From an uncultured Eubacteriales bacterium (GTDB taxonomy: Bacteria; Bacillota; Clostridia; Oscillospirales; CAG-272): 64,000 nucleotides of DNA. The DNA lies in assembly GCA_934467435.1 (NCBI GenBank), contig CAKSLR010000001.1, positions 67-64,066 of the forward strand, written 5' to 3'. The notes beneath the pieces are model-generated. The model ran no database searches. It was not told the DNA's origin and saw only the letters and a list, made by a program, of their open reading frames with translations. Of the stretch, positions 2,292 through 19,557 are shown piece after piece (position 1 is the stretch's first letter; the number at the start of each line of letters is the position of its first letter). The position numbers were made by a program, and so were the translations under genes.

Positions 2292-2349
2292 CCGGCACGC
2301 CCGCGGTCGATTTTTGTATTTTCTTGGGCAACTGCCCCTGATTTGCCAG

Positions 2350-2378
2350 TTTACAATCCCCGGGGCTTGTGGTATGAT
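2350..2378 (+). promoter_or_regulatory. Promoter of the TetR gene
   Basis: TTTACA (2350-2355), 17-nt spacer, TGg-TATGAT (2373-2378, extended -10). Confidence 0.55.
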
Positions 2379-2411
2379 AAGAGCGGAAACGAAAACAAGG
2401 AGGGGGATGCT

Positions 2412-2942
2412 TTGCCGAACAATTATACCAAAGATTCGATCAAAAAAGCCTTTATCGAACTGCTCAACGAGCGCCCTCTCAACAAGATCAGCGTCAGAAG
2501 CATTGTGGATATCTGCAACATCAGCCGCAACACGTTTTATTACCATTACCAGGACGTGCCGCAGCTGCTGGAGGAAATCATCATTGAGTCGGCGGACACA
2601 CTGATTGCGCGCTACCCCACCATCGACTCGATCGGCGCGTGTGTAGACGAGGCATTTGCCTTTGCCCAGAAAAACAAGCGCGCCATTTACCACATCTACC
2701 ACTCGGTGGACCGGGATGCCTATGAAGAATTTCTGATGAAAATGTGCGACCACGTGGCACACACGCACATTGACGCCCTGCTTGCCGGACGCGGGATTGC
2801 GCCGAACGACCGCGAGGCGCTGATTCACTGCATGAAATACGTTTGTTTCGGCGCCTGCATCGACTGGACCAAAACCGGTATGAAAAGCAATATTGTGGAA
2901 GAATACCACCGCATTGTCGATCTGTTCCTGCGTGCCTATTGA
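2412..2942 (+). CDS. TetR/AcrR-family transcriptional regulator
   Basis: N-terminal HTH region ...SIKKAFIELLNERPLNKISVRSIVDICNISRNTFYYHYQDV... The ORF-track ATG (2343) lies upstream of the promoter. An in-frame TTG at 2412 sits 7 nt after AAGGAGGGGG. Confidence 0.75.
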   Translation: MPNNYTKDSIKKAFIELLNERPLNKISVRSIVDICNISRNTFYYHYQDVPQLLEEIIIESADTLIARYPTIDSIGACVDEAFAFAQKNKRAIYHIYHSVDRDAYEEFLMKMCDHVAHTHIDALLAGRGIAPNDREALIHCMKYVCFGACIDWTKTGMKSNIVEEYHRIVDLFLRAY

Positions 2943-3075: not shown

Positions 3076-3678
3076 ATGTATTCTGTGGTTCCCATGAAAA
3101 TTGCCAAAATCGGTCATATCGTTTCGGCGGTTTTTCTGTTTGCCCTGGGGCTGAGCCTGATTCTCTACCCCGATTTTTCGGTTCCCGTGGTAGAGAAGGT
3201 TTGCGGGGTCTATCTGATTTTATTCGGTGCCATCAAAATGGTGGGGTACCTCTCGCGGGATATTTACCGGCTGGCGTTCCAGTATGATTCGGTATTCGGC
3301 ATCATTCTGGCCGGCATCGGCATTGCGTTTCTTGCCCGCCCCGAATCCACACTGACCTTTGTTTCCATTCTGCTCGGGCTGGCGGTGTTCAGCGACGGCG
3401 TGATCAAAGTGCAGGTGGCACACCACGCCCGTAAATTCGGCATTGAAGCGTGGTGGGCGATTTTTCTGCTTGCCGTGCTGGCAGGCATCGGCGGGCTGTG
3501 CATTGTGATTCACCCCATGGAGGGCGCACGGGCGCTTGGCATTGTGCTGGGCGTGGTGCTGATGGTGGACGGCGTGATGAGCGCCCTGACCGTTCTGACC
3601 TCTGTAAAAATCAAGGAATACAGTGACCCGCGCATTGAAGTGACCTATATCACGTCGGACGGGGACGAAAAGAAATGA
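3076..3678 (+). CDS. Small multi-pass membrane protein (DUF308/HdeD-like)
   Basis: Six hydrophobic helices with repeated G-rich helix pattern. The stop overlaps the acpS start (ATGA at 3675-3678). Confidence 0.5.
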   Translation: MYSVVPMKIAKIGHIVSAVFLFALGLSLILYPDFSVPVVEKVCGVYLILFGAIKMVGYLSRDIYRLAFQYDSVFGIILAGIGIAFLARPESTLTFVSILLGLAVFSDGVIKVQVAHHARKFGIEAWWAIFLLAVLAGIGGLCIVIHPMEGARALGIVLGVVLMVDGVMSALTVLTSVKIKEYSDPRIEVTYITSDGDEKK

Positions 3679-4022
3679 GCGTTACCGACATCGGCATTGA
3701 CCTGGTCTCGGTCGGCAGATTTGCCGGGCGGGGCAAAGGTGTGGAAAAATACTTTCTTTCCCCGGCGGAGGGTGCGGAATTTGCCGCACTGCCGCCCGCC
3801 CGCCGCCCGCTTTACCTTGCTACCCACTGGGCGTGCAAAGAGGCGATTTTCAAAGCAACGGGCGACCGCAACTATACCGCTTATACCCTTTCCCACCGGG
3901 AGGACGGCAAGCCCTTTCTCGTCGGGCGCCCCGATCTTCTCATCTCCATCAGCCATGACAACGATTTCGTTGTGGTAATCATAGAAAAGACAGAAAGAAA
4001 TGAGGATTCCGAACATGAATGA
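3675..4022 (+). CDS. acpS: Holo-ACP synthase (group I 4'-phosphopantetheinyl transferase)
   Basis: 115 aa. IGIDLVSVGRF..., WACKEAIFKATG, GKPFL...ISISHD match the AcpS pattern. Confidence 0.85.
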   Translation: MSVTDIGIDLVSVGRFAGRGKGVEKYFLSPAEGAEFAALPPARRPLYLATHWACKEAIFKATGDRNYTAYTLSHREDGKPFLVGRPDLLISISHDNDFVVVIIEKTERNEDSEHE

Positions 4023-4257
4023 AAATGAAGTAAAAGCAAAAATCAAAGAAATGCTCTGCGACCGCCTCGGCATTGATGCCGACGCGCTCGGCTATGATAC
4101 CGTGCTGTTTGGCGACGGCATCGGGCTGGATTCGATCGACTCGCTGGAGATCATCTCCGCCATTGACGAAGAATACGGCGTTTCGATGACCGGTGTGGGC
4201 AAAGAACACTTCCGCAACATTGATGCACTTGCCGCCTACGTGGTTGCCAACGCCTGA
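4015..4257 (+). CDS. Acyl carrier protein (phosphopantetheine-binding)
   Basis: 80 aa from the ATG at 4015 (GAGGA upstream; overlaps the acpS stop). GLDSIDSLEIISAIDEEYGV contains the DSL Ser attachment motif. Confidence 0.85.
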   Translation: MNENEVKAKIKEMLCDRLGIDADALGYDTVLFGDGIGLDSIDSLEIISAIDEEYGVSMTGVGKEHFRNIDALAAYVVANA

Positions 4258-4300
4258 GAACGCGGGAACCTGAGAACGGAAAAGAAAAGGAAAAACGGAT

Positions 4301-6673
4301 ATGACGAACGAAAGAAACCGCTGTGTCATCACGGGTCTTGGGGTGATTTCCGCCATCGGCAACGATGTGCCAACCTGCTGGGAGAGTATTCTTTCGGCAA
4401 AGAGCGGCATTGACCACACGACCACGCTGGATACGGAAGGCTGCTATGCCGACTATGCGGCAGAGGTCAAGGGGGTAAACGATGCCGATTCGCCCCTTGA
4501 CCGCGCTACCGTGCTTTGCCTGCGGGCAGCCAAAGAAGCCCTGACCGATGCGGCGCTTCCCGATTTTGCGGGCAGTGCACGCGCCTCGGTCATCATGGGG
4601 AGCTGCGTGGGCGGCGGCCGCAGCATGGCTGCCTACTACCGTGGGGAAAAGACCCGGCAAAACGTACGGAACATGCCCATTTCCGCCATTGCCAACCATG
4701 TGGCATCGCTCTGCCACGCGGGCGGGGTGGTAACGAATGTGGCAAACGCCTGCGCGGCGGGCACCATCAGCATCGCCTATGCCTCCGACCTGATCCGGGC
4801 GGGCAGGGCGGATGTGGTGGTTGCCGGCGGGGCGGATGCGTTTTCCGCCGTCCCCTACTCCGGGTTTCTTTCGCTGCACGCGCTGGATGAAGAATCCTGT
4901 TCGCCCTTCAACCGCTCCCATGGCATTACGCTGGGTGAGGGCGCCGGTGCGGTGATTGTGGAATCTTATGCCCACGCGAAGGCGCGGGGCGCGCACATTT
5001 ACTGCGAGGTACTGGGCTCCGGTATCAGCAGCGACGCCTTCCACATCACGGCGCCCCGCCCGGACGGGGAGGGGCAGATGAGCGCCATCCGCGATGCCAT
5101 TGCCCACTCCGGTCTTGCGGCACAGGATGTGGATTACGTCAACGCCCACGGCACCGGCACGGCGAAAAACGACGAGGCGGAGTTCCTTTCCCTGCACACC
5201 ATTTTTGACGGGGAGCGGGACGGACTTTGCGTCAGTTCGACCAAAGCCATGACGGGGCACTGCCTCGGCGCGGCGGGGGCAATCGAATCGGTCTTTGCCA
5301 TCAAGGCGCTGGCGGAGGGTGTGGTACCCCCGACGCTCGGCTACACCGAAGAGGACCTTGCGGTACTGAAGGAAAAGGCAGGGCCCCTGAATTTCTGCCC
5401 CAATCTGCCGCACAAAGAAAAACTGCACACCGTGATGGATAACTCCTTTGCCTTCGGCGGTACGAACGCCAGCCTGCTCTTTTCGGACAAGGCAGGCGAG
5501 ATTCCCGATGCACCCGCGCGGGAGGATATCGTACTGACGGGCATCGGCATTGTCTCTCCGCTCGGAAACGGCAAAAACCGCTATCTTGCCGCCTGCTGCG
5601 GGGGCGAGACGATCGGGGCGGAAGGACGCTCTTCGGTCAGTGCGGCGGATTATGACGCGCTCGGGCTGAAAATGGCGTTTTACCGCAAACTGGACCACCT
5701 CAGCCAGTTGCAGGCAGTCTCGGGGCTGGATGCCCTGCGGGACGGCGGCTACACCGTGACCCCGGAGAACGCCAAGGAAATCGGCATCATCATCGGCACC
5801 TCCGAGGGGGCGCTGGGTCCGAGCTGCGAATTCCAGGAAATGATTGACGAAAAGGGGAACGCGGGCGGCAGCGCCTTCCGGTTCCCGAACACCGTTTATA
5901 ACGCGGCGGGCGGCTATCTTTCCATCTGCTCCGGCATCCGCGGTTACAATGTGACCGTGACCAACGGCGCCCAGTCGGGTCTGCAGTCGGCGGCATACGC
6001 CATGCAGGTCATCCGCAACGGGTGGGAAAGCGCCATGCTTGCCACCGGTACGGACGAAAACAGCGATATTATGACCGAACTCTACCGCTGCCTCGGTCCG
6101 GTTGCCGACCGGCGGGTTGCCCCTTATGCGGGGGAGGATACCATGACCCTCTCGGACGGCAGCGTGTCTCTTCTCCTGGAGACAGCCTCCTCCGCTGCGG
6201 CGCGCGGCGCGCGCCGCTACGGCAGACTGACCGGCTACGGCATGGGGCACGGCGATGTTCCCTTCGGGGAAGTGCGCGGTTCGGCGCGCGGGCTGTCGGA
6301 CGCCATCGAAGCCGCCCTTGCCGATGCGGGCATCGGCGCGGGTGAGATCGATGCGGTCATCGGGTTTGCCAACGGTCTGAGCGAAGTCGACGAAACCGAG
6401 GACAAGGTTCTTTCCCGCTTTGTGGATTCGGCGCGGGTGCCGGTTCTCACGGTGAAAGAACGGATGGGCGAGGGCAGAGCGGCATCCGCCGCACTGGCGC
6501 TGGCGCACGGGGCGCTCCTGCTTGCGGGAGAGTTGCCGAACGAGGGCGACGCTTATCTGACAAAGAACGGCAAAAAAGAAAAAACCACGGTACGCGGGGA
6601 GGACATCCGGCGTGTACTGCTGCTCTCTTACGCGCCGGGCGGTTCTTATACCGCGCTGGTGCTGGAAAAATAA
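4301..6673 (+). CDS. Fused beta-ketoacyl-ACP synthase (FabF-like, Cys-His-His) plus C-terminal Cys-less KS-like (CLF-like) domain
   Basis: 790 aa. N-terminal half: VANAC(151)AAG, VNAH(283)GTGT, TKAMTGH(320)CLGAAG, FAFGGTNASL. C-terminal half (about aa 405-790) has the same fold signature (IVLTGIGIVSPLG, VTVTNGA(557)Q(558)SGLQSAAYAMQVIRNG, ATGTDE), but the Cys and both His positions are replaced. Confidence 0.85.
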   Translation: MTNERNRCVITGLGVISAIGNDVPTCWESILSAKSGIDHTTTLDTEGCYADYAAEVKGVNDADSPLDRATVLCLRAAKEALTDAALPDFAGSARASVIMGSCVGGGRSMAAYYRGEKTRQNVRNMPISAIANHVASLCHAGGVVTNVANACAAGTISIAYASDLIRAGRADVVVAGGADAFSAVPYSGFLSLHALDEESCSPFNRSHGITLGEGAGAVIVESYAHAKARGAHIYCEVLGSGISSDAFHITAPRPDGEGQMSAIRDAIAHSGLAAQDVDYVNAHGTGTAKNDEAEFLSLHTIFDGERDGLCVSSTKAMTGHCLGAAGAIESVFAIKALAEGVVPPTLGYTEEDLAVLKEKAGPLNFCPNLPHKEKLHTVMDNSFAFGGTNASLLFSDKAGEIPDAPAREDIVLTGIGIVSPLGNGKNRYLAACCGGETIGAEGRSSVSAADYDALGLKMAFYRKLDHLSQLQAVSGLDALRDGGYTVTPENAKEIGIIIGTSEGALGPSCEFQEMIDEKGNAGGSAFRFPNTVYNAAGGYLSICSGIRGYNVTVTNGAQSGLQSAAYAMQVIRNGWESAMLATGTDENSDIMTELYRCLGPVADRRVAPYAGEDTMTLSDGSVSLLLETASSAAARGARRYGRLTGYGMGHGDVPFGEVRGSARGLSDAIEAALADAGIGAGEIDAVIGFANGLSEVDETEDKVLSRFVDSARVPVLTVKERMGEGRAASAALALAHGALLLAGELPNEGDAYLTKNGKKEKTTVRGEDIRRVLLLSYAPGGSYTALVLEK

Positions 6674-6694
6674 CAGAAAAAAGGAAAACAACTG

Positions 6695-7426
6695 ATGAAA
6701 GTGGCACTGGTAACGGGAGCCTCACGCGGGATCGGACGGGCATGCGCCCTGCGCCTGGCGCAGGACGGTTTCTGCGTGGTGGTCAACTACGCGCACAGCG
6801 AAAAAGAGGCTGCCGCGGTTCTGGATGAGATCCGCGCCGGCGGCGGTGAGGGGATGCTGTATCGTGCGGATGTCTCCGACCTCGATCAGGTCAAGGGGAT
6901 GATGCGCGAGGTGTTCCGCGCTTACGGACAGATGGATGTGCTGGTCAACAACGCCGGCATGGTACGGGATGAATACCTGCTGATGCTGAACCCCGACACG
7001 CTGGACGCCTGCCTGGATCTGAACGTCAAGGGATATTTCTACTGCACGCAACAGGCGGTATTAAAAATGTTCCGCCGCAAGTGCGGGACGGTGATTCACA
7101 TGTCCTCGGTCAGCGGGGAACTTGCCCTGGCGGGGCAAAGCGTTTACAGCGCCACCAAAGGTGCGGTGAACGCCATGACCCGCACCATGGCAAAGGAACT
7201 GGCGCCCTACGGCATCCGCGTCAACGCGGTGGCACCCGGCTTTATTGAAACCGAGATGCTGGACGCGCTGCCTGAAGAAAAGAAAAAAGAATACTTAAAC
7301 GCCATTCCCATGCACCGGCTCGGAAAGGTGGAGGACGTGGCGGGGCTGGTTTCCTTCCTCGCCTCCGATGCCGCCGCTTACATGACGGGGCAGGTACTGA
7401 CGCTGGACGGAGGCATTTCGCTGTGA
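6695..7426 (+). CDS. fabG: 3-oxoacyl-ACP reductase (SDR)
   Basis: TGASRGIG cofactor motif, NNAG, and the S...YSATKGAV catalytic triad region. Confidence 0.85.
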   Translation: MKVALVTGASRGIGRACALRLAQDGFCVVVNYAHSEKEAAAVLDEIRAGGGEGMLYRADVSDLDQVKGMMREVFRAYGQMDVLVNNAGMVRDEYLLMLNPDTLDACLDLNVKGYFYCTQQAVLKMFRRKCGTVIHMSSVSGELALAGQSVYSATKGAVNAMTRTMAKELAPYGIRVNAVAPGFIETEMLDALPEEKKKEYLNAIPMHRLGKVEDVAGLVSFLASDAAAYMTGQVLTLDGGISL

Positions 7427-7875
7427 TGAACATTTACGAAGTCAACCGCCGTCTGAAGCAGCGGCCGCCCTTTCAGATGGTGGAAAAGGTGAGCGAACTG
7501 ACCCCCGGCGAATCTGCCGTGGGGCACAAGACCGTATCGGTCAATGACCCGTGGTTTGCAGGTCACTTTCCCGGTGAGCCGATTCTGCCCGGCGTTCTGA
7601 TTGTGGAAAGCTGCGCGCAGCTCTGCTCCCTGACGGTGGAAGCGGACGGCACGGCGGAGGACAAATTCTACGTCCTTCTGAAAATCGACAATTTCAAATT
7701 TCTGCGCCCCATTCTGCCGGGTGATGTCATGGACATCACGGTGAAAAAGAAGAGTGGCGCGGGACCCCTTATCACCTTTGATGCGGTGGTATCGGTCGGC
7801 GGCACCGTGCACGCGAAGGGCGGTATTTCCTTTACCGCCATGGAGAAGAGCCGTCTGGACGAAGGAGAACACTGA
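7423..7875 (+). CDS. fabZ: 3-hydroxyacyl-ACP dehydratase (hotdog fold)
   Basis: PPFQMVEKV..., FAGHFPGEPILPGVLIVESCAQL. 4-nt overlap with fabG. Confidence 0.85.
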   Translation: MMNIYEVNRRLKQRPPFQMVEKVSELTPGESAVGHKTVSVNDPWFAGHFPGEPILPGVLIVESCAQLCSLTVEADGTAEDKFYVLLKIDNFKFLRPILPGDVMDITVKKKSGAGPLITFDAVVSVGGTVHAKGGISFTAMEKSRLDEGEH

Positions 7876-7876
7876 G

Positions 7877-8785
7877 ATGGAAAAAACGGCATTTCTCTTT
7901 GCCGGTCAGGGCGCGCAGAGCGTCGGGATGGGCAAAGATTTTTATGAAGAAAACGAAGCGGCACGCGCGGTGTTTGCGATGGGGGAACGACTTGCCCCCG
8001 GCATCACGGCGCTCTGTTTTGCGGGCGACAGTACGGAACTGAACCGCACCGAAAACACGCAGCCCGCCCTGTTTCTGACCGACCTTGCCATTGCCGCCGC
8101 GCTGCGTGCGGCGGGGGTGAGTGCGGACGGTGCGGCGGGCTTTTCGCTGGGGGAGATTCCCGCGCTTGCCTTTGCCGAAGTCCTATCGGAAGAAGAAGCG
8201 TTCCGCTTTGTACTGCTGCGCGGAAAGAGCATGGCAGCGGCAGCCGCCCGCCACGCGGGCGGCATGGCGGCAGCCCTGAAACTGCCGCCCGAACAGGTAG
8301 AGGAAATCTGCCGCCGCTTCCGTGAGATCTGGCCGGTCAACTATAACTGCCCGGGGCAGGTCTCCTGCGCGGGGAGTGCAGCGGAGATTGACGATTTCTG
8401 CGCCGCCGTCAAAGCGGCGGGGGGCAGAGCCGTCAAACTGCCGGTGAGCGGCGCGTTCCACACCCCGTATATGGAAGAAGCGGCACCCGCGCTGCGGGAA
8501 TTTCTTGCCGGCGCGGCGCTCGCGGCGCCCGCCATCCCGGTTTACGCCAACCGCACGGGCGAGCCTTACCCTGCCGACCCTGCGGAAATCACCGCGCGGC
8601 TGTGCGAGCAGGTTTTCTCCCCTGTGCTGTTTGAAAAGACGCTGCACCGGATGTGGGAGGACGGGTACCGCCGGTTCATCGAAGTCGGTGCGGGCAGCAC
8701 GCTCAGCGGCTTTGTGCGCCGTACCCTGCCCGATGCCGTTACGGTAACGGTGAACAACGTTGCCGCCATGGCGGCGCTCAACTGA
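7877..8785 (+). CDS. fabD: Malonyl-CoA:ACP transacylase
   Basis: Internal start MEKTAFLFAGQGAQSVGMG. GFSLGE nucleophile motif and GAFHTPYM. The ORF-track start at 7754 overlaps fabZ and is rejected. Confidence 0.85.
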   Translation: MEKTAFLFAGQGAQSVGMGKDFYEENEAARAVFAMGERLAPGITALCFAGDSTELNRTENTQPALFLTDLAIAAALRAAGVSADGAAGFSLGEIPALAFAEVLSEEEAFRFVLLRGKSMAAAAARHAGGMAAALKLPPEQVEEICRRFREIWPVNYNCPGQVSCAGSAAEIDDFCAAVKAAGGRAVKLPVSGAFHTPYMEEAAPALREFLAGAALAAPAIPVYANRTGEPYPADPAEITARLCEQVFSPVLFEKTLHRMWEDGYRRFIEVGAGSTLSGFVRRTLPDAVTVTVNNVAAMAALN

Positions 8786-8798
8786 CGGAGGTTCGCCG

Positions 8799-9611
8799 AT
8801 GGAAAACAACCGCAAAAGAACGCTGGACGACGTCCGCCGTTCGGAGAACACCAAAACCTGCCCGCGCTGCAAAGAACCGGTGCGCGAGGCGGTGCTTGCC
8901 GATACCTATTACATCTGCCCCCTTTGCGGGGCGCATTTTCCGATTCCCGCCCGCCTGCGGGCGGAGTACCTCTCGGACACCGGGCGGTTTTCGGAGTTAT
9001 TCGGGGAGGAGATCTTCACCGACCCGCTTGCCTTCCCCGACTATGAGGAAAAATTCCGCTCCTCCATGCAGAAGAGCGGCGAAAACGAAGGGGTGCTTTG
9101 CGGCACCACACAGATCGACGGTCACCACGCCTGCCTGTTTGTGATGAACCCCGAGTTCATGCTCGGTTCGATGGGCACGGTGGTGGGCGACCGCATTACC
9201 GCCCTGTTTGAATACGCGACCGAGCACCGTCTGCCCGTGATCGGCTACACGGTATCGGGCGGCGCGCGGATGCAGGAAGGGATGCTTTCGCTCATGCAGA
9301 TGGCAAAGGTTTCCGCCGCCGTGAAAAAACACAGCGAAAGCGGGCTTTTGTACATTGTGGGCATTACCGACCCGACCATGGGCGGGGTGACCGCCAGTTT
9401 TGCCATGCTGGGAGACGTGATTTTTGCCGAACCCGGCGCCCGCATCGGCTTTGCCGGAAAACGGGTGGTGGAGCAGGTCACGGGTGAAAAACTGCCCGAC
9501 AGTTTTCAGACTGCCGAGTTCCAACTCGAAAACGGGTTTCTTGACGAGATTGTAGAGCGGAAGGAACAGCGCGCGCACCTTGGCGTGCTGCTTGCCATCC
9601 ACGAAAGATAA
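8799..9611 (+). CDS. accD: Acetyl-CoA carboxylase carboxyltransferase beta subunit
   Basis: N-terminal Zn ribbon CPRCKEP...CPLCGAHF. GGAGG at 8787-8791 precedes the ATG at 8799. Confidence 0.85.
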   Translation: MENNRKRTLDDVRRSENTKTCPRCKEPVREAVLADTYYICPLCGAHFPIPARLRAEYLSDTGRFSELFGEEIFTDPLAFPDYEEKFRSSMQKSGENEGVLCGTTQIDGHHACLFVMNPEFMLGSMGTVVGDRITALFEYATEHRLPVIGYTVSGGARMQEGMLSLMQMAKVSAAVKKHSESGLLYIVGITDPTMGGVTASFAMLGDVIFAEPGARIGFAGKRVVEQVTGEKLPDSFQTAEFQLENGFLDEIVERKEQRAHLGVLLAIHER

Positions 9612-9622
9612 AGGAGAGAGCG

Positions 9623-10483
9623 ATGACCGAAGAACTGACGGTATATGATAAAATCTGCCGCACCCGGCAGAACGGACGTGCCACGGCGGCGGATTATATG
9701 CTATCGGGCGCCATTTTCACCGATTTCTGCGAGTTGCACGGCGACCGCTGCTTTGGGGACGACCACGCCGTGATCGGCGGCATTGCCCTGCTGCACGACT
9801 TGCCGGTAACGGTGGTCGGCATTGAAAAGGGGCGGGATATCAGCGAGCGGCTGTACCGCAACTTCGGCTGTGTGCTGCCCGAAGGATACCGCAAGGCGCT
9901 GCGCCTGATCCGGGAGGCGGAAAAGTTCCACCGCCCCGTTATCTGCTTTGTGGATACGCAGGGCGCCAACTGCGGCAAGGGCGCGGAGGAGCGCGGCGCG
10001 GGCGAGGCGATTGCCGAAAACCTGTTTGAACTGAGCGACATCCGCACCCCCATCATCACAGTCATGATCGGGGAAGGCGGCAGCGGCGGGGCGCTTGCCC
10101 TGGCGGTTGCCGACCGTGTGTGGATGCTGCGCAACGCCTATTATTCGGTCATTTCGCCCGAGTCGTGCGCCAGCATTCTGTTCAAGGATCCCCACCGCGC
10201 GCCCGAGGCGGCAGAGCACCTGCACCTGACGGCGGACGATTTGCTGGATATGCAGATTGTGGAGAAGGTGATTGAGGAGCCGGATGACTTCCGCGACAGC
10301 GCCGCCCGCGCCAACTTCATGGCATCGCTTGGCGATGCGCTGTACGCCGAACTGCGTACCCTTGCCCGACGCAAGCCCGAAAAACTGGTTGCCGAACGCT
10401 ATGAAAAATACCGCAAGATCGGACGTTACGATTCCTACGGCACGCGGAGCGGACTTTGGAGGTGGCGGCTGGGTGGAAACTGA
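9623..10483 (+). CDS. accA: Acetyl-CoA carboxylase carboxyltransferase alpha subunit
   Basis: FCELHGDRCFGDDHAVIGGIA..., FVDTQGANCG, GEGGSGGALA. Confidence 0.85.
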   Translation: MTEELTVYDKICRTRQNGRATAADYMLSGAIFTDFCELHGDRCFGDDHAVIGGIALLHDLPVTVVGIEKGRDISERLYRNFGCVLPEGYRKALRLIREAEKFHRPVICFVDTQGANCGKGAEERGAGEAIAENLFELSDIRTPIITVMIGEGGSGGALALAVADRVWMLRNAYYSVISPESCASILFKDPHRAPEAAEHLHLTADDLLDMQIVEKVIEEPDDFRDSAARANFMASLGDALYAELRTLARRKPEKLVAERYEKYRKIGRYDSYGTRSGLWRWRLGGN

Positions 10484-11240
10484 CGCACCGAAGAAAAAAG
10501 TTCTGGTTCTGAACGGCAGCCCGCACAAAGAAAAGAGCAGCACCATGGTTGTCACCCGTGCGTTTCTCAATGGGTTGACGAGAAAGGGAACCTACGAGGC
10601 GGAGACCATCTCCGTTGCCGCCCTGAAGGTGACCCCCTGCATGGGCTGCCTTTCATGCTGGGGACGCACCGAGGGCGAATGTGTCATCCGCGGGGATGAC
10701 GTTGCCGCCGTCAAGGAAAAAATCCTTGCGGCGGATCTTTTGCTGCTCAGTTTTCCCCTTTACTTTTTCGGGGTGCCGGGGCAGATGAAACTGCTCGGCG
10801 ACCGCCTGCTTTCGATGATGAAGACCTACCGCGGGCAAAAGGTACCTCCGGACGGTTCGCCCGCGCACGGGATGCGCGATCCGCGACCCGCGCAGAAAAT
10901 TCTTCTGATTTCGGGCTGCGCCTATGTGGAGACCGGGGAGGTTTACCAACCGACCCTCAAGCAATGCGACCTGATTTGCGGAAAGGGGGGCTATACTGCC
11001 GTGCTCTGCCCGCAACTGAAAACCATGCTGGATAACGGCGGCACGCGGGTGGAGCGGACGCTTGCCCGCTTCCGTGCGGCGGGAGAAGAATTTGAGAGAA
11101 GCGGAGCGCTTTCCGATGCGACCCTTGCTGCACTGACCCGTCCGCCGTTTTCCGATACGGTTTACAAGACCATCCTTGCCGAGGTGTGGCGCAAGGAGCG
11201 AGAGGAAGGAGAAAAAGCCCGTGGTACATCTTGCGATTGA
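10473..11240 (+). CDS. Flavodoxin-fold NAD(P)H/FMN oxidoreductase with compact 4-Cys motif (iron-sulfur flavoprotein, Isf-like)
   Basis: KKVLVLNGSPHKEKSSTM (FMN_red-type N-terminus). CMGCLSCWGRTEGEC is C-x2-C-x2-C-x7-C (nt 10638-10682). The GTG at 10473 sits 9 nt after GGAGG and overlaps the accA stop. Its own stop overlaps the plsX start. Confidence 0.65.
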   Translation: METDAPKKKVLVLNGSPHKEKSSTMVVTRAFLNGLTRKGTYEAETISVAALKVTPCMGCLSCWGRTEGECVIRGDDVAAVKEKILAADLLLLSFPLYFFGVPGQMKLLGDRLLSMMKTYRGQKVPPDGSPAHGMRDPRPAQKILLISGCAYVETGEVYQPTLKQCDLICGKGGYTAVLCPQLKTMLDNGGTRVERTLARFRAAGEEFERSGALSDATLAALTRPPFSDTVYKTILAEVWRKEREEGEKARGTSCD

Positions 11241-12192
11241 TCTTCTCGGTGCCGATACGCCGGAGGAGGAACTTTGCCGCGGGGCGGTGACTGCCCTGCG
11301 GAAAAACCCCGACCTTTACCTGCACCTGTTCGGCCATGCCGCGCGGTTGCAGCCATTGTTAGCCGAAAGTAAAATTTCGGTTGACCATTATGAAATTGTG
11401 GACTGCCCCGGTACGGTGACAAACGAGGACGCCTCTCTGACTGCCTACGAAAAAAAAGATGCCTCTATCGTGCGCGCCATGCAACTTGCCAAGGATCGGG
11501 CGGATGTGTGCGGGGTCATTACCTGCGGTTCTACCGGCGCGGTGCTGGTATCCGCGATCATGATTCTCGGTAAAATCCGCGGCATGCGCCCGGTGCTGGC
11601 AGTAGAACTGCAAAGCGAGGACGGCAAGCCGCTGCTGCTGCTGGACTGCGGCGCAAACATCGACAGCCGCGCGGAACTGTTGCTTTCATTTGCCCGGCTG
11701 GGGAACGCTTATATGAAGAGCAAAGGGCAGGACGCGCCGCGGATTGCCCTGCTTTCCAACGGTAGGGAGGATACAAAAGGCTGTGAAACCGTCAAGGAAG
11801 CAAATGCGCTGCTGCGCGCGACGGAAGGGTTGCACTTTATCGGCAATATTGAGGCGACCGATGCCCTGCGTGGGGAAACGGATGTCATCGTTTGCGACGG
11901 GTTCCACGGGAATATTCTGCTGAAAAGCATCGAAGGTACGGCAAAGTCCGTGCTCCGTCAACTGCAGAAGGCAAACATGGGTGACGGCGCACAGGCGGCG
12001 CTGGATGAAGTCTATCGCCGATATGATTTCAACGCGATGGGCGGGGCAGTTCTGCTCGGCGTCAACAAACTGGTGATGAAGGGACACGGCGCGGCAAAGG
12101 GGGATGCGATTGCAAACATGATCGCCCAGGCATACCCGCTTGCCGATCACGGTCTTGCCGACCGCATCCGGCAGATTTACGCCGGGGCGTAA
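11221..12192 (+). CDS. plsX: Phosphate acyltransferase PlsX
   Basis: AIDLLGAD, GSTGA and DCGAN motifs. GTG start at 11221 after GAAGGAG. Confidence 0.85.
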   Translation: MVHLAIDLLGADTPEEELCRGAVTALRKNPDLYLHLFGHAARLQPLLAESKISVDHYEIVDCPGTVTNEDASLTAYEKKDASIVRAMQLAKDRADVCGVITCGSTGAVLVSAIMILGKIRGMRPVLAVELQSEDGKPLLLLDCGANIDSRAELLLSFARLGNAYMKSKGQDAPRIALLSNGREDTKGCETVKEANALLRATEGLHFIGNIEATDALRGETDVIVCDGFHGNILLKSIEGTAKSVLRQLQKANMGDGAQAALDEVYRRYDFNAMGGAVLLGVNKLVMKGHGAAKGDAIANMIAQAYPLADHGLADRIRQIYAGA

Positions 12193-12575: not shown

Positions 12576-12606
12576 ACAAAAAGCCCCCGCGATTTCTCGC
12601 GGGGGC
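12576..12606 (-). terminator. Intrinsic terminator of the 12654-13880 gene
   Basis: GCCCCCGCGA-tttc-TCGCGGGGGC, followed on the minus strand by TTTTTGTTT. Confidence 0.75.
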
Positions 12607-14312: not shown

Positions 14313-16826
14313 CTATTTTCCCTGCTCCCGCCAGAACCGGCGGAACAGAACGCCGAGCGCGGACGGATCCCCCACGAATTTGAGATGGTGCCAGTGGTTC
14401 GGAATCATACCCCGCCAAAGGGGGTCGGCAAAACGGTCGTCAATCAGCAGAAGAGTGCCGCGGTCTTCTTCCCCGCGGATGACCCGCCCCGCCGCCTGCA
14501 GCACGCGGTTCATGCCGGGGTAGATGTAGGCATACTGCTTGCCTTCTTCATAAATTTCCTGGTAGTAATCGCAGATCGCCTCGCGCTCGGGGGATAGTTG
14601 AGGCAGGCTGACCCCGACAACGGCGGCACCGATCAGGCGGCTGCCGGCGAGGTCGATGCCCTCGGCAAACACGCCGCCCGTCACGCAGAAGCCGACCAGC
14701 GTTTCGCCGGGGTCCGGCGCAAAGCGGGAAAGAAATTCCTCCCGCGCCCGCTGGGGCGCACCGCGCTTTTGCACGGCAATTTTCACAGCGGGATACGCAC
14801 GGTGGAAGGCAATGCAGATTTCCTCAAGGTAGGCAAACGAAGGGCAGAACACAAAATAGTTCCCCACATGGGCGCTGACCATTTCGTAAATTGCCGCGGC
14901 AATGGCGGGGGCGCTTTCGGTGCGCGCGGTAAAGCGGGTACTGATCTGATCCATGACCGCCACCGAAAGATGTTCTTCTTCAAAGGGGGAATCGAGGAGC
15001 AGTTCCTCATCCTCCGCCCGCCCGCCGAGCACCGTACGGTAAAAGGGCAATGGGGCAAGCGTTGCCGAAAAGAGGACGGCGCTCTTTCCGAGATCCAGAC
15101 GGGCGCTGAGCACCTCGGCAGGGTCAAGGCAGACCGTGCGCACACGGTACTGCGCATCCTCCCGCAGGTAAAAGGTGACAAAACGATCGGAATACAGTTC
15201 CGCACGGGTGGCAAAATTCCGGAGCGGATAGCAGAATGCGCGCAGTTTTTCCCGCAGGGAGAGCGGCGTGCGGCGATCCTGCGCGGCGCGCAGTCCTTCC
15301 TCCGCCAGGGCGGCAACGGCAAAAAACAACTCTTCCGGCGCCGCTTTCTGCCGTGTGAAGGCGTGCGTCACGCCATCGGCATCCTCATAGGGGCGCTCGC
15401 CCGAGAGCGCCGCTTTGACCGTGCGCAGAAACAGGCGGCGCACCTCCTCCGCGCGGGAAAGGAGGGGGGAGGCAGACGCCTCCTCCCGCAGTGTGGCGAC
15501 CAGGGCGCCGAGGGTGCGGGAATCGAGTTCCCCGCTGTACATTTCCCGCGCCCGTTCGAGAAGATCGTGCGCCTCATCGATCAGGAAGCAGTAGTTCCCG
15601 TCCTCCGAGAAGTAGCGGCGCAGGTACATTCGGGTATCGAACAGATAATTATAATCCCCGACGATCACATCGCAAAACCGGCTGTAGCGCAGGGAAAGTT
15701 CGTAGGGACAGACGCCGAAGCGGGCGGCAACCGCCCGCACCTCCGCCTCCCCCGCCACGGGCGTGGGGGAAGAAAGCAGCGCAAGCGCCGCGCTCTCCAG
15801 ACGCTCCCCGCCCGCACGGGCAAAGCGGCAGGGGGCAAGCGAATCGCGGCAGAGCATTTTTTCGGTACAGATGCGCTCTTTTGCCGTAAGCACGATGGCG
15901 CGCAGTTTGCCGCCCGCGGCGGCAAAGCGCCCGAGGGCATCCGCCGCTGCGCGGGCGGTGGTGGTTTTGGGGGTGAGGTAAAACACGCGGTCACACAGCC
16001 GCTCCCCGAGGGCACGCAGGGCGGGATACAGCACCCCCGCCGTTTTGCCGGTGCCGGTGGGGGCGCAGGCATACAGACGGCGGTGATGGCGGATGGTGCG
16101 GTAGGTTGCCTGAATCAGATCCTCCTGCCCCATGCGCGGGCGGGGATAGGGAAAGCGCAGGGTACGCAGGGTGGGCAGCCGTTCCGCCACCCGGGCAACC
16201 TCGGCTACCGCCGCGTGGGAGAGCGTTGCCCGCACACGGGCAAAAAAGGTGTCGGCTGCCGCACGGGTCACCGTTTCCTCAAACGTTCCCTCCCGCCCGT
16301 CACGGGGAGAGCGGAGCAGCGCCCGCACGTGAACGGCGGGCGCCGTCTCCGTCGAAAAATACAGGCAGGCAAGCAAAAACAGTTCCCCGCGCACATGGCG
16401 CAGAGTCTCTTTGTCGGGGGATGCCGGGTCCCCGTTCACCGTGCGAACCACCGTCAGCGTAGCGGAAAGCCCCGCCATAGCACCGCCGTGCGGCAGAAGG
16501 ACACCGTCCGCCGATCCGAAGAGGCAGAAGCGCCTCTCCCCTTCCTCAAATTCCAGCGAGAAGGAACGCGCCTCCCCGATACCGCCCGGCAGCGCGCCGG
16601 ACGATGGCAGCGGAGGAGTGCCTTCTTCCCCCTCCCGCGGAATTTCGCTTGCCAGCCGGCAAAGGGAGAGCGAAACCAACTCCCCGAGAGAGACGCGGAT
16701 GCACCCCTCATTCTCGTCATAATACAAAATTGCACGCCCCCTTCGGAATCTGCGATCCAAAATTGTAAACAATTTGAAAACGCCCTTGTCAAAACGCAAA
16801 AGATGTGTTATAATACCCCTCGTCAT
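14313..16826 (-). CDS. XPD/Rad3/DinG-family Fe-S DNA helicase with uncharacterised N-terminal domain of about 230 aa
   Basis: Walker A CAPTGTGKT, IDEAHDL box, and four Cys between them (ICTEKMLCRDSLAPCRF...GVCPYE). The start is uncertain: ATG at 16826 or TTG at 16727. The ORF-track start 16904 runs through tRNA-Val. Confidence 0.75.
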   Translation of the reverse strand: MTRGIITHLLRFDKGVFKLFTILDRRFRRGRAILYYDENEGCIRVSLGELVSLSLCRLASEIPREGEEGTPPLPSSGALPGGIGEARSFSLEFEEGERRFCLFGSADGVLLPHGGAMAGLSATLTVVRTVNGDPASPDKETLRHVRGELFLLACLYFSTETAPAVHVRALLRSPRDGREGTFEETVTRAAADTFFARVRATLSHAAVAEVARVAERLPTLRTLRFPYPRPRMGQEDLIQATYRTIRHHRRLYACAPTGTGKTAGVLYPALRALGERLCDRVFYLTPKTTTARAAADALGRFAAAGGKLRAIVLTAKERICTEKMLCRDSLAPCRFARAGGERLESAALALLSSPTPVAGEAEVRAVAARFGVCPYELSLRYSRFCDVIVGDYNYLFDTRMYLRRYFSEDGNYCFLIDEAHDLLERAREMYSGELDSRTLGALVATLREEASASPLLSRAEEVRRLFLRTVKAALSGERPYEDADGVTHAFTRQKAAPEELFFAVAALAEEGLRAAQDRRTPLSLREKLRAFCYPLRNFATRAELYSDRFVTFYLREDAQYRVRTVCLDPAEVLSARLDLGKSAVLFSATLAPLPFYRTVLGGRAEDEELLLDSPFEEEHLSVAVMDQISTRFTARTESAPAIAAAIYEMVSAHVGNYFVFCPSFAYLEEICIAFHRAYPAVKIAVQKRGAPQRAREEFLSRFAPDPGETLVGFCVTGGVFAEGIDLAGSRLIGAAVVGVSLPQLSPEREAICDYYQEIYEEGKQYAYIYPGMNRVLQAAGRVIRGEEDRGTLLLIDDRFADPLWRGMIPNHWHHLKFVGDPSALGVLFRRFWREQGK
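16786..16814 (+). promoter_or_regulatory. Promoter of tRNA-Val
   Basis: TTGTCA (16786-16791), 17-nt spacer, TATAAT (16809-16814). Confidence 0.6.
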
Positions 16827-16903
16827 GGAGGCATAGCTCAGTTGGTTAGAGTACTTGCTTGACATGCAAGGGGTCACTGGTTCGAGTCCAGTTGTCTCCA
16901 CCA
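16827..16903 (+). tRNA. tRNA-Val (anticodon GAC)
   Basis: Acceptor GGAGGCA/TGTCTCC, D-loop AGCTCAGTTGGTTAGAGT, anticodon stem CTTGC/GCAAG with loop TTGACAT, T-loop GGTTCGAGTCC, and encoded CCA. Confidence 0.9.
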
Positions 16904-17059
16904 CAGCCTCAAAGGCGTTTTGCCTTTGGGGCTCCTTGCTTTTTTCAGCGCTTTTTTGCGTTTTTTGTCGGATTTTCTCTCAGTATAACACAAAATTTCT
17001 CCTCCCGCAAGGGGGGGCCTTGCTTTTTTGCTGTTTTTTACAGATTGGAGCCTGTTTTC

Positions 17060-18028
17060 ATGAAGCACAAATCCCTCTCGCCTGTTGCCGCCCTGCTTTG
17101 CATGTTGCTGACCGCTATGATCTGGGGGTTCGCCTTTTCCGCGCAAAAGGAGGCGGGCGATGCCATCGGCAGTCTGAGCGTGACCTGCCTGCGTTCGGTG
17201 ATTGCGGCGGCGGCGCTGTTTTTTCTCATTCTGATTTTTGACCGGGTGCGGGGGGACGGACGGCGTCTGCTTTCCCGCCGGGGTGTGGACATCACGCGGA
17301 CGGAATGGCTCGGCGGTGTTCTCTGCGGGCTGGCGCTTGCCACCGCCACGCTGCTGCAGCAATACGGCATGCAGGAAAACGGCAGCGCCGGCAAGACCGC
17401 GTTCCTTACGGCGCTGTATGTGGCGCTCGTGCCTCTGTTCGGCATCTTTCTCGGCAAAAAGACCGCGCCGCTCGTGCTGTGCGGGGTGGTCGGCTCGGTG
17501 CTGGGGGCCTTTGTGCTTTCGTTCGACCTGTCGGGCGGGGCATCGTTTTCCTTTGCGCGGGGGGATCTTCTCTGTTTTCTCAGCGCGGTGATGTTTGCCG
17601 TGCATATTCTGATTGTAGACCGGTTTTCCCCGCACACAGACGGCATTCGCATCTCTTTTGTTCAGTTTCTCACCGGTGCGGTTCTGACCCTCCCGTTGAT
17701 GCTGCTTTTTGAGCGCGGCACCGTGACGGCGGATGCCATGGGGCGGGCGATTCTGCCGCTGCTTTACCTTGGCGTGATGTCCAGCGGCGTGGCATACACC
17801 CTGCAGATCGTAGGGCAGAGCCGGGTGCACCCCGCGGTGGCAAGCACGCTGCTTTGCACCGAGTCTATTTTCGGGCTGCTCGGCGGCATGCTCTTCTTCG
17901 GCGAGACGCTTTCCGCGCGCGAATGGGTGGGTTGCGCGCTGCTCTTTGTTTCCGTCCTGCTCAGTCAGACGGGCAGTTTTTTCCGCCGTCCCCAACCCCC
18001 GAAACAAGAAAAGGAGGCTGATTTATGA
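17060..18028 (+). CDS. DMT-superfamily (EamA-type) transporter
   Basis: Internal start MKHKSLSPVAALLCMLLTAMIWGFAFSAQK. Ten hydrophobic helices in two EamA-like halves. Confidence 0.8.
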   Translation: MKHKSLSPVAALLCMLLTAMIWGFAFSAQKEAGDAIGSLSVTCLRSVIAAAALFFLILIFDRVRGDGRRLLSRRGVDITRTEWLGGVLCGLALATATLLQQYGMQENGSAGKTAFLTALYVALVPLFGIFLGKKTAPLVLCGVVGSVLGAFVLSFDLSGGASFSFARGDLLCFLSAVMFAVHILIVDRFSPHTDGIRISFVQFLTGAVLTLPLMLLFERGTVTADAMGRAILPLLYLGVMSSGVAYTLQIVGQSRVHPAVASTLLCTESIFGLLGGMLFFGETLSAREWVGCALLFVSVLLSQTGSFFRRPQPPKQEKEADL

Positions 18029-18918
18029 AAGAATGGATCTATCGCCACGGTATCCTGTTTGCCGCCCTGCTGTTCTTCCCTTTCTTTGCGCTGTTTTTGT
18101 TTTTCCTCTACCGCCGGATGCTGGACCCCTTTACCGTTACGCTGCTTTCGCTTTGGCTGCTTTGGCTGGTGATGCTGCCCGGGCGGCGGGCGGGACAGGT
18201 GCTTTACCGGGATGCGTACCTGGCACTGTACCGGGACTGCGACCCGTTTACCTATGTGGAAAAGATGCAGTTTCTTTCGGAAAAGCGCTCCCTGCCCGCC
18301 GCACGCCGCCTGATGCTTTCGACCAACCTGGCGGTGGGCACCGATGCCTGCGGCAAGACCGAGGATGCCCTGCGCCGGTGCCGGGAATGCCTTGACACTG
18401 CGGAAAGGGAGAACCCCGCCGTGCGGTATGTCATTTACCTGACCTACGCCTGCATCACCGCACACAGCGAAGCACACCGGGACGAGTTGCCCCACATGAT
18501 CGCGCAGTTGGAAGCGGGGCTTTCCCAGATCGGGCAGGGGGCGGCGGAGCGGATGCAGTTCCGCGAAAGCATTGCCACCATCCGGGATGCCCACCGCCTT
18601 TGGACGGGGGAATATGACGGGCTGCGGAAGCGGTTTCTTGACCGTTTGAACGCCATTTGCGATACCCCCGCGCAAAACTACCCGAAAATGCTTGCCTGCA
18701 TCTGGCTCTCGCGCCTGTACGACCGCCTCGGCGAGTACGAAAAGGCGGGCGCCATGTACCGCTATGTGGAGGAAAACGGCTACCGCCTTGCCATCGCGCG
18801 GGAGGCAAAGATTTCCGGGGAGCGCTGCCGCCGCCTGGCGGAAGAAGAAAAGTGCGCCGCCCCTGCCGCAGGCGAGCCGGAGGCTGCCGCGCCGGAGGAA
18901 CCCCCGGCAATATTCTGA
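18025..18918 (+). CDS. Hypothetical membrane-anchored protein
   Basis: ATGA overlap with the DMT gene. Two N-terminal TM helices are followed by a helical soluble part. No family recognised. Confidence 0.5.
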   Translation: MKEWIYRHGILFAALLFFPFFALFLFFLYRRMLDPFTVTLLSLWLLWLVMLPGRRAGQVLYRDAYLALYRDCDPFTYVEKMQFLSEKRSLPAARRLMLSTNLAVGTDACGKTEDALRRCRECLDTAERENPAVRYVIYLTYACITAHSEAHRDELPHMIAQLEAGLSQIGQGAAERMQFRESIATIRDAHRLWTGEYDGLRKRFLDRLNAICDTPAQNYPKMLACIWLSRLYDRLGEYEKAGAMYRYVEENGYRLAIAREAKISGERCRRLAEEEKCAAPAAGEPEAAAPEEPPAIF

Positions 18919-19043
18919 CGCTGTGCCGAAAAAAAATCGGGCACGGAAAAAAGGGTGTAAAACCGCGAAAAAAGCGCCCGCGCCGCATGAAAAAGCGGGT
19001 TTTGGTCTGCCGTCCGAAAAGAAAGAAAATCGGGGTCGGGGGC

Positions 19044-19072
19044 TTGACATTTTTTCGCGAACCATATATAAT
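19044..19072 (+). promoter_or_regulatory. Consensus promoter of the 19120 lipoprotein gene
   Basis: TTGACA (19044-19049), 17-nt spacer, TATAAT (19067-19072). Confidence 0.6.
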
Positions 19073-19119
19073 AATAGTACCCCCGGAGGGGGAGTTTTGA
19101 GAAAAAAGGAGTACACACA

Positions 19120-19557
19120 ATGAAAAGAACCATTTCTCTCTCGCTCGCACTGGTAATGGTCGTGGTAATGGCGCTTTCGCTCGCTTCCTGCTCGAACTAC
19201 GGGAAGATTGAAAAGAACTTTACCGCTGCCGAATACACGGTTGTGGACACGACGGACGAGGACGGAAAGGAGAAGCTCTCCTTTGTCGCTCACCTGAACG
19301 ATGAAGGCAAGATCTCCTGCACCACGCACATTCTGAAGAAGGGGCTGAACTACGCAGTGATTCTGGAGTTCGGTGCCAACGAGGATGCGCAGAAGGCGCT
19401 GGAAAACTACATGAAGGATGATGACGTCAAGGCGTTCGTCAAGGATCTGGATTCCACCAAACTGGTGAACGGCAACTGCGTTCTGATTCCCGTAACGATC
19501 AATCTCGTTTCGATCAGCAAAAATATCAACGAGATGATCGATCTGTTCAATAAGTAA
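19120..19557 (+). CDS. Small lipoprotein, unknown function
   Basis: Signal peptide with lipobox LASC (MKRTISLSLALVMVVVMALSLASCSN). AAGGAG RBS. Confidence 0.6.
   Translation: MKRTISLSLALVMVVVMALSLASCSNYGKIEKNFTAAEYTVVDTTDEDGKEKLSFVAHLNDEGKISCTTHILKKGLNYAVILEFGANEDAQKALENYMKDDDVKAFVKDLDSTKLVNGNCVLIPVTINLVSISKNINEMIDLFNK

Follow-up and report, generated by a model that had tools for sequence, protein, structure and literature searches.

FabK, FabL and FabV, three of the enoyl-acyl carrier protein (ACP) reductases (ERs) of bacterial fatty acid synthesis, were each discovered as non-orthologous replacements in genomes without FabI, and FabK (PDB 2Z6I), which depends on flavin mononucleotide (FMN) and is usually encoded within the fab cluster, replaces FabI in many Firmicutes. 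The ERs reviewed in 2022 comprise FabI, FabL, FabL2, FabI2, FabMG and FabV, all of the short-chain dehydrogenase/reductase (SDR) type, and the TIM-barrel enzyme FabK, which takes electrons directly from NADH; no flavodoxin-fold enzyme is among them (PMC9260719). Here, a stretch of 64,000 nucleotides (the window) from an uncultured Eubacteriales bacterium of the CAG-272 lineage (contig CAKSLR010000001.1, positions 67 to 64,066) was analysed, in which a fatty acid synthesis operon with no known class of ER contains a gene for a flavodoxin-fold protein of 255 amino acids (aa) with a compact cysteine motif (hereafter the flavoprotein). Judging from its sequence and its setting, it is reasonably probable that this protein is the ER missing from an unusual type II fatty acid synthase made up of ACP, a fused condensing enzyme that resembles a ketosynthase (KS) joined to a chain-length factor (CLF), FabG and FabZ, of which the flavoprotein would most likely be the fourth enzyme.

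Among solved structures, the sequence profile came closest (E 4.8e-11, residues 8-111 of the flavoprotein) to FLR from Flavonifractor plautii (PDB 7D38/7D39; Yang et al. 2021), a flavone reductase that consists of a WrbA-like FMN domain and a C-terminal tail, and binds FMN and substrate at the dimer interface (PMC7862272). In FLR the FMN phosphate is contacted by Met10, Ser14 and Asn15, while a loop after beta4 (G146, S147, W149) touches both the isoalloxazine ring and the substrate; FMNH- delivers a hydride to the beta carbon of a carbonyl-conjugated C2=C3 bond, NAD(P)H is not used directly, and the physiological electron donor is unknown (PMC7862272). A compact cysteine motif of the form CX2CX2CX5-7C, thought to bind a [4Fe-4S] cluster, occurs in Isf of Methanosarcina thermophila and its relatives, which are flavodoxin-like FMN proteins (PMC3164229). 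FMN and a [4Fe-4S] cluster are also combined in FabX of Helicobacter pylori, a fatty acid synthesis enzyme that acts on acyl-ACP and is not an ER (PMC8626469), and enoate reductases have been classed as FAD/[4Fe-4S] ene-reductases (PMC7862272).

Co-occurrence of the flavoprotein with a fused ketosynthase

The operon comprises eleven tightly packed or overlapping genes on the + strand (3076 to 12192; Table 1) and covers KS, ketoreductase (KR), dehydratase (DH), malonyl supply, the carrier and the enzyme that activates it, and the route out to phospholipid, with no known ER class. Its condensing enzyme (KS-KS') keeps the catalytic Cys-His-His in the N-terminal half, while the C-terminal half has lost all three residues (NGAQSG / FANGL / GEGRAAS), as have chain-length-factor partners. 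The fused gene was found at 50-98% identity in about 100 loci, and the operon of the window has neither FabH nor FabF.

Two scans were run, one anchored on each gene. In the first, restricted to one genome per species, 35 loci with the flavoprotein were recovered, and in 34 it lay beside fab genes (the ACP / KS-KS' / FabG / FabZ core), one of these being a 5.2-kb contig on which just AccD-AccA-flavoprotein-PlsX is visible (locus L003); the exception was a relative of 30% identity on a 5.5-kb contig (L035). The hosts included the cultured species Lachnospira eligens, Ruminococcus spp., Evtepia, Avispirillum and metagenome-assembled genomes (MAGs) of Acholeplasmatales, and a homologue of Coprococcus hominis and Eubacterium sp. 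MSJ-33, seen in a metagenome locus, was likewise next to ACP-KS-KS'-FabG-FabZ. In the second scan, of metagenomes, 80 loci with KS-KS' were obtained and the flavoprotein was present in 59, which are 59 of the 59 informative ones; the other 21 end at the cluster edge on the flavoprotein side, with L068 differing in that its low-coverage 5.5-kb contig stops short of that point. Co-occurrence of the two genes across genomes, which the original prediction had proposed as a check, was therefore strongly borne out (34 of 35 and 59 of 59 loci).

The association persisted through five gene orders. The window has FabZ-FabD-AccD-AccA-flavoprotein-PlsX (order A); the others are FabZ-flavoprotein-AccB-AccC-AccD-AccA-FabD-biotin ligase (B), FabZ-flavoprotein at the cluster end (C), TetR, a glycerol-1-phosphate (G1P)-dehydrogenase-like protein, flavoprotein, PlsC-like, ACP, KS-KS', FabG and FabZ (D), and FabZ-flavoprotein-PlsX (E). 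Orders B, C and E read KS-KR-DH-flavoprotein, which is the order of the reaction cycle. Order D belongs to C. hominis and Eubacterium sp. MSJ-33, whose flavoproteins are 33-37% identical to that of the window. Throughout, the flavoprotein is co-encoded and co-inherited with KS, KR, DH and ACP in clusters otherwise without a known ER, the genomic pattern of an ER.

The G1P-dehydrogenase-like gene of the C. hominis-type loci (L078-L103; for example L091, 6908-7966) stands directly 5' of the flavoprotein and the PlsC-like acyltransferase. Its product gave a match to Fe-ADH_2, and its best NCBIfam model was PRK00843, whose cut-off of 413 it missed with 233.8 bits. The presence of a G1P-forming enzyme within a bacterial fatty acid/phospholipid cluster was unexpected.

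Search for known enoyl-ACP reductases

For the known ER classes, tblastn probes (FabK of S. pneumoniae, FabV of V. cholerae and FabI of E. coli) were run against the window and 115 related loci, a total of 1,787,055 bases of gene neighbourhood; the first two probes were validated at full length against PDB (FabK to 2Z6I, E 1e-205; FabV to 5XI0, E 2.5e-245). Over this set, FabK gave no match better than E about 1 and FabV none better than E 0.25, and the FabI probe matched FabG genes alone, at 22-26% identity. The flavoprotein open reading frame (ORF) itself was matched by none of the three probes and showed flavodoxin-fold families only in Pfam, and Pfam scans of the large ORFs of the window found neither an ER nor a plasmalogen-synthase-like gene. 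The operon had been described beforehand as having no ER, and this holds for the operon and the 64-kb window with regard to FabI/FabL-like SDRs, FabK and FabV. A dual role of FabG, the only SDR of the operon, was rejected, its best score being on the 3-oxoacyl-ACP reductase model (275.7 bits) against 204.6 bits on the FabL model, whose cut-off is 328.

Protein family, motifs and predicted structure

Residues 8-121 of the flavoprotein matched Pfam Flavodoxin_2 (E 1.2e-16, 61.5 bits, cut-off 27) and FMN_red (E 1.2e-15, 57.8 bits, cut-off 24), which places the protein among the flavodoxin-like-fold FMN reductases, in agreement with the FMN-reductase N-terminus KKVLVLNGSPHKEKSSTM named in the original prediction. 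No NCBIfam model specific for the flavoprotein and no match to an Isf model was found, Pfam gave no coverage past residue 121, and the public names of the protein are only 'flavodoxin family protein' or 'multimeric flavodoxin WrbA'. The AlphaFold2 model (pLDDT 93, pTM 0.90) has a five-stranded flavodoxin-like core, the cysteines on a long loop (50-76) and a helical C-terminal extension (H191-210, H215-221 and H228-254); the core is a three-layer alpha/beta/alpha fold with a parallel sheet, for which Foldseek gave a probability of 1.00 to AzoR and NQO1.

Conservation was followed in 65 distinct homologues (down to 30% identity) and in 58 closer database homologues. The four cysteines of the motif CMGCLSCWGRTEGEC, placed by the original prediction at nucleotides (nt) 10638-10682 and indeed located there (C56 at 10638-10640, C70 at 10680-10682), are invariant in both sets, and the C56-x2-C59-x2-C62-x7-C70 spacing fits the compact Isf motif (PMC3164229). 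In the loop after strand 1, N14 and S16 are invariant and G15 and S22 at least 90% conserved. A fifth invariant cysteine, C149, follows the strand modelled at E142-148, and S147 is at least 90% conserved. The 65 sequences further share G58, W63, G68, I72, D75, P95, F99, K106, D110, R111, R135, F31, G34 and G170, and in the C-terminal extension A203 and G204 are invariant, while in the 58 database homologues conservation of P225 and F226 reaches at least 90%.

In an exhaustive profile search of 1.84 billion representatives, 11,437 relatives were found at E <= 1e-3 and 253 at E <= 1e-30. Many are longer, carrying an SCP2 lipid-binding domain (approximately 355 aa) or SCP2 together with a multi-pass membrane domain (530-600 aa), and one (Wujia sp.) is fused to a GDSL/SGNH hydrolase; the fusions to SCP2 or to the hydrolase point to hydrophobic or acyl substrates. 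One SCP2-fused member lies behind a PadR regulator on short contigs (2.4-2.8 kb) that show no lipid genes. By neighbour-joining, the SCP2-fused proteins fell outside the clade that holds all KS-linked flavoproteins.

Relationship to FLR and other flavin reductases

Profile-profile alignment (hhalign) against FLR relatives gave a probability of 98.3% and an E of 1.2e-14 over residues 7-117, the cysteine motif included, so that homology to the FLR class was found for the N-terminal 110 residues only. A family profile was needed to reveal it, the PDB search with the single sequence having been weak (best E 4e-4). FLR and the flavoprotein share the flavodoxin/WrbA-like FMN fold, a cysteine motif at the equivalent place and an origin in gut Clostridia. 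In contrast to the flavoprotein, FLR has 310 aa, acts on free flavones, is encoded outside lipid operons and has no reported Fe-S cluster, and its motif has a spacing of x11 rather than x7. The FLR relatives have an invariant C-x2-C-x2-C-x11-C that aligned with the flavoprotein motif and is absent from the discussion in the FLR paper. Loss of an Fe-S cluster during aerobic purification of FLR could account for the report of FMN only, for the absence of NAD(P)H dependence and for the unknown donor.

The elements of the FLR tail (beta subdomain, bent helix, His271, Ile275, Thr279) had no counterpart in the flavoprotein model, which has only helices after residue 190. Filing the flavoprotein as an FLR was rejected on this ground, on its length of 255 aa and on the lack of alignment beyond residue 117. 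A search with a 104-residue FLR fragment returned fragments of at most 181 aa, and the profile left the FLR tail and the loop after beta4 unaligned, so the proposed equivalence of C149 with FLR S147 is a pattern match and not an alignment.

By structure, the nearest PDB entries in Foldseek were AzoR, NQO1, NQO2 and related FMN/FAD reductases (TM-score 0.5-0.69, E down to 4e-9); the top 50 contained AzoR/NQO-type proteins only and neither FLR nor Isf, so that this search did not discriminate between candidate relatives. The AzoR/NQO1/NQO2/WrbA-type proteins share the Flavodoxin_2 fold with the flavoprotein, but at 14-19% identity, without the cysteine motif, and with NAD(P)H as donor and soluble small molecules as acceptors. 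A reading as ACP phosphodiesterase was rejected, as it derives solely from the old 'AcpD' names of AzoR structures (1T5B, 1TIK), and the name is a misassignment. The description 'Isf-type' given earlier to the flavoprotein was upheld for the cysteine motif only; in the PDB searches it came out nearer to FLR and to the AzoR/NQO-type than to any chain named Isf, and among 60 PDB matches at E <= 1 in the family profile search no chain bore that name. Isf proteins are shorter and lack a helical extension at the C-terminus; they reduce O2/H2O2 with electrons from ferredoxin, and they are not known to be linked to ACP or lipid genes.

FabK has the role proposed here for the flavoprotein but is a TIM barrel of the nitronate monooxygenase family. 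FabX, FadH (2,4-dienoyl-CoA reductase) and the clostridial enoate reductases possess the cofactor pair expected of the flavoprotein and perform similar chemistry at an alpha,beta bond; they are TIM-barrel proteins (OYE- or FabK-like), in contrast to the flavodoxin fold here, and FabX runs the reaction backwards and isomerises. Such chemistry has repeatedly been solved with FMN and a [4Fe-4S] cluster (in FadH, in the enoate reductases and, run backwards, in FabX).

Proposed assignment as enoyl-ACP reductase and possible reaction

The flavoprotein is proposed as the probable ER of the pathway because the reaction cycle is otherwise complete and the gene co-occurs with it through rearrangements, because in some gene orders it is positioned after FabZ and no known ER was found in 1.8 Mb of neighbourhoods, because the homologous FLR performs a similar bond reduction, and because FabK, FabL and FabV set a precedent for non-orthologous replacement. 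The case is a genomic one. Observed are the flavodoxin fold, the cysteine motif, the setting of the gene and its homology with FLR, and from these the cofactors, electron donor and catalytic residues are proposed as follows.

The flavoprotein would be a flavodoxin-fold reductase, dimeric by analogy, in which the N14-T24 loop and the one that follows strand 4 hold FMN, probably with a [4Fe-4S] cluster on C56/C59/C62/C70. Electrons might reach the flavin from NAD(P)H in a ping-pong manner, as in AzoR, NQO1 and FabK, or, as we judge somewhat likelier, singly from reduced ferredoxin or flavodoxin by way of the cluster; a donor of the latter kind is plausible because FLR is independent of NAD(P)H. 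FMNH- would then pass a hydride to C3 of the ACP-bound trans-2-enoyl thioester, with protonation at C2. Candidates for proton donation or for polarisation of the carbonyl are the invariant C149 or the conserved Y119, H132 and R135, and C149 is a candidate proton donor by analogy only, because the FLR loop after beta4 carries the contacts to flavin and substrate. The C-terminal helices may cover the acyl chain and dock ACP.

Clade members without a ketosynthase and alternative explanations

Several points weigh against this assignment. In the neighbour-joining tree, the KS-linked clade contained two further representatives that again lie in KS-KS' clusters and four in other contexts (3.4-10 kb visible per side; the topology is unreliable among sequences so diverged). 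These four diverged homologues are in clusters without KS, KR or DH within that distance: TetR, PlsC-like, patatin, flavoprotein, ACP, DUF308, PlsX, DegV, FakA and a dehydratase-activase-like protein of 1434 aa (L125, 6889-18553; genome GCA_029007215.1); TetR, PlsC-like, fatty acid ligase, ACP, flavoprotein, SGNH hydrolase and DUF308 (L130, 6773-12075; genome GCA_965347975.1); PlsC-like, ACP, patatin and flavoprotein (L129, 1433-4113); and patatin, flavoprotein and a DUF2229 protein (L121, 5598-10997). The first three share ACP and an acyltransferase that uses acyl-ACP with the KS-linked clusters, while L121 shows the patatin link alone; the conserved partner in three of the four is ACP with an acyltransferase rather than an elongation cycle. 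The substrate-binding C-terminal tail of FLR (beta-sheet and long helix) does not align with the flavoprotein, and FMN with a [4Fe-4S] cluster beside fab genes would also fit FabX, which is not an ER. ER genes may lie outside the fab cluster, as do fabI of S. aureus and B. subtilis, and a canonical FabK, FabI or FabV may be present elsewhere in these genomes, outside the searched neighbourhoods. The original prediction that the flavoprotein supplies the missing reduction accordingly gained considerably from the co-occurrence, from the neighbourhoods free of a canonical ER and from the relationship to FLR, and is tempered by the KS-less clade members, by an ER search confined to neighbourhoods and by an Isf resemblance that concerns the cysteine motif only. 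The contexts suggest that the general activity of the clade is reduction of C=C bonds on acyl-ACP, which would serve as the ER of the elongation cycle in this operon; a ligase such as that of L130, for example, could charge ACP with a 2-enoic acid, which would then be reduced.

The same contexts leave room for a different lipid-redox role, with the flavoprotein catalysing another acyl-ACP or membrane-lipid step and the true ER encoded elsewhere, which we regard as unlikely. It might be a FabX-like dehydrogenase/isomerase for anaerobic unsaturated fatty acids, an enzyme for saturation or repair of scavenged acyl-ACP, or a low-potential donor for a plasmalogen-forming activase/reductase. To our knowledge, the route of Clostridia to unsaturated fatty acids is unresolved, and clade members near ACP, ligase, PlsC-like proteins, patatin/SGNH lipases, DegV/FakA and the 1434-aa acyl-CoA-dehydratase-activase-like protein, with no KS/KR/DH, speak for such a step, as does FabX of H. 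pylori, which has FMN and [4Fe-4S] and is not an ER (PMC8626469). Yet the KS-KS' clusters would still be without an ER in all of about 95 loci, and at no locus did the flavoprotein accompany a classical FabH/FabF/FabK cluster, although the hosts of such clusters also need unsaturated fatty acids and plasmalogens. There was no activase among the scanned large ORFs of the window or the called genes of KS-linked loci with gene tables, and ER-type chemistry on an ACP thioester fits the KS-less clusters too.

A general protective reductase of the Isf/WrbA/AzoR type, with O2, H2O2, quinones or xenobiotics (flavonoids, for instance) as its substrates, could shield oxygen-sensitive or membrane processes with no direct part in the pathway. 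The Isf-type motif, a fold resembling quinone and azo reductases, the SCP2-fused and PadR-linked paralogues in the family of 11,437 members, which look like detoxification genes, and the fact that databases call the protein nothing other than 'flavodoxin family protein' or 'WrbA' would agree with this. It is nonetheless improbable, as a bystander would hardly stay linked to, and overlapping with, its neighbours through five gene orders, several bacterial orders and 33-98% identity, and the fab-linked proteins form a clade of their own, separate from the SCP2-fused ones. Also conceivable is that no ER is missing, the cluster being a highly reducing type II polyketide-like system with an unsaturated (polyene-type) product, and the flavoprotein a tailoring or late-stage reductase. 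The KS/CLF-like architecture, and weak matches of DH, KS, ACP and KR to ApeI-like and cispentacin/flexirubin-type families, are in keeping with such a system; it becomes very improbable in view of the accA/accD (and in other loci accB, accC and biotin ligase), fabD, acpS, plsX and PlsC-like genes that the cluster carries or abuts, of its presence in small-genome Acholeplasmatales MAGs and abundant gut commensals, and of FabZ and PlsX scoring best on, and near the cut-offs of, housekeeping equivalog models.

Gene boundaries and operon context

The flavoprotein ORF runs from a GTG start to a TGA stop (11238-11240) and overlaps both neighbours. The original prediction had the GTG overlapping the accA stop (TGA 10481-10483) and the stop overlapping the plsX GTG, and both overlaps were confirmed, at 11 and 20 nt; they would imply translational coupling at both ends. 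The plsX GTG is preceded by AGGAG (11207-11211), and the Pfam FA_synthesis match extends from residue 2 of PlsX onward. An identical 255-aa protein is already present in a public collection, and the same start and stop have therefore been picked by independent gene callers. The L. eligens flavoprotein (242 aa; L011, 9989-10717) shares its 90%-identity protein cluster with many pure PlsX proteins (329 aa), which suggests that some assemblies call a fused or read-through flavoprotein-PlsX product connecting the two.

Table 1. Coordinates of the lipid operon, its flanking elements and the features of the flavoprotein gene in the window
Feature	Position	Strand	Basis
TetR-family regulator (TetR_N + TetR_C_8), 5' of operon	2343-2942	+	Pfam
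DUF308/HdeD-like membrane protein, operon gene 1; recurs in related lipid clusters	3076-3678	+	
Holo-ACP synthase AcpS	3675-4022	+	Pfam ACPS, E 4.4e-11
ACP	4000-4257	+	NCBIfam ACP models
Fused KS-KS', 790 aa	4301-6673	+	
3-Oxoacyl-ACP reductase FabG	6695-7426	+	NCBIfam TIGR01830, 275.7 bits
3-Hydroxyacyl-ACP dehydratase FabZ	7423-7875	+	NF000582, 118.9 bits (cut-off 113)
Malonyl-CoA:ACP transacylase FabD	7877-8785	+	Profile match
AccD, acetyl-CoA carboxylase carboxyltransferase beta; true start may be slightly 3' of 8760	8760-9611	+	Pfam
AccA, acetyl-CoA carboxylase carboxyltransferase alpha	9623-10483	+	Pfam ACCA, E 3.6e-104
GGAGG ribosome-binding site, 10 nt 5' of flavoprotein GTG	10458-10462	+	Sequence reading
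Flavoprotein gene, 255 aa, candidate ACP-dependent ene-reductase/ER	10473-11240	+	ORF, Pfam, AlphaFold2
Overlap of flavoprotein start and accA end, 11 nt	10473-10483	+	ORFs
N14-G-S-P-H-K-E-K-S-S-T24 loop after strand 1, FMN phosphate-binding loop by analogy	10512-10544	+	Conservation
C56-x2-C59-x2-C62-x7-C70, putative [4Fe-4S] ligands	10638-10682	+	Invariance, fit to Isf motif, alignment with FLR relatives
S147-G-C149-A-Y151 loop after strand 4, putative flavin/substrate loop	10911-10925	+	Conservation, model
C-terminal helical extension, residues 191-255, beyond core flavodoxin fold	11043-11237	+	Model
Overlap of flavoprotein end and plsX GTG start, 20 nt	11221-11240	+	Sequence reading
Phosphate acyltransferase PlsX, last operon gene	11221-12192	+	Pfam FA_synthesis, E 4.6e-69
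GC-rich hairpin between operon and convergent downstream gene	12583-12606	.	Consensus scan, reported on - strand only

A TetR family regulator precedes most of the related clusters, and in the window a terminator-like hairpin lies upstream of the operon together with the TetR gene. In our reading, the hairpin downstream of plsX also terminates the + strand operon. The operon includes AccD and AccA, without AccB or AccC; in the Acholeplasmatales-type loci (L016, 10961-16121), the flavoprotein is followed by AccB, AccC, AccD, AccA, FabD and biotin-protein ligase. Elsewhere in the window, genes for tRNA-Pro(CGG) and tRNA-Val(GAC) were located at 1201-1277 and 16827-16903, and several long ORFs that overlap tRNAs or real genes are probably antisense artefacts of a sequence with 60% G+C. 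The region 3' of the lipid operon (14313-26601) contains unrelated DNA-repair genes on the - strand (DinG-like helicase, AddB-like nuclease, UvrA), and a P-type cation ATPase (30956-33652) and a U32 peptidase (51750-54059), also unrelated, are encoded farther downstream.

Implications

In the literature searched, enoyl-ACP reduction was nowhere connected with a protein of the flavodoxin, WrbA or Isf type, and neither an L. eligens ER nor the fused KS-KS' synthase of these bacteria (Lachnospiraceae) was described. On the reading proposed here, a flavodoxin-fold reductase related to FLR would have been recruited in one more displacement of the canonical ER. It is possible, if rather doubtful, that abundant gut Clostridia (L. 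eligens, Coprococcus, Ruminococcus spp.) and Acholeplasmatales share a distinct synthase in which the KS/CLF-like fusion replaces FabH/FabF and the Fe-S flavoprotein, in place of FabK/FabI, is a fifth structural ER class, supplied by ferredoxin or flavodoxin instead of NAD(P)H and thereby the first ferredoxin-linked ER, acting also on scavenged acyl-ACPs in relatives whose locus has no synthase genes.

ERs are drug targets (triclosan, isoniazid and FabI inhibitors), and FabK inhibitors have been put forward as a way to act on C. difficile and Fusobacterium while sparing the microbiome. If the assignment is true, the flavoprotein would represent a third ER fold, in very common gut commensals, and inhibitors of FabI and FabK would be predicted to leave those with the cluster unaffected by nature. 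The assignment would also close an annotation gap in genomes that name the protein just 'flavodoxin family protein', and the FLR-type ene-reductases would gain a primary-metabolic member. Should the Fe-S cluster be the point of electron entry, lipid synthesis in these anaerobes would be tied to their ferredoxin pool.

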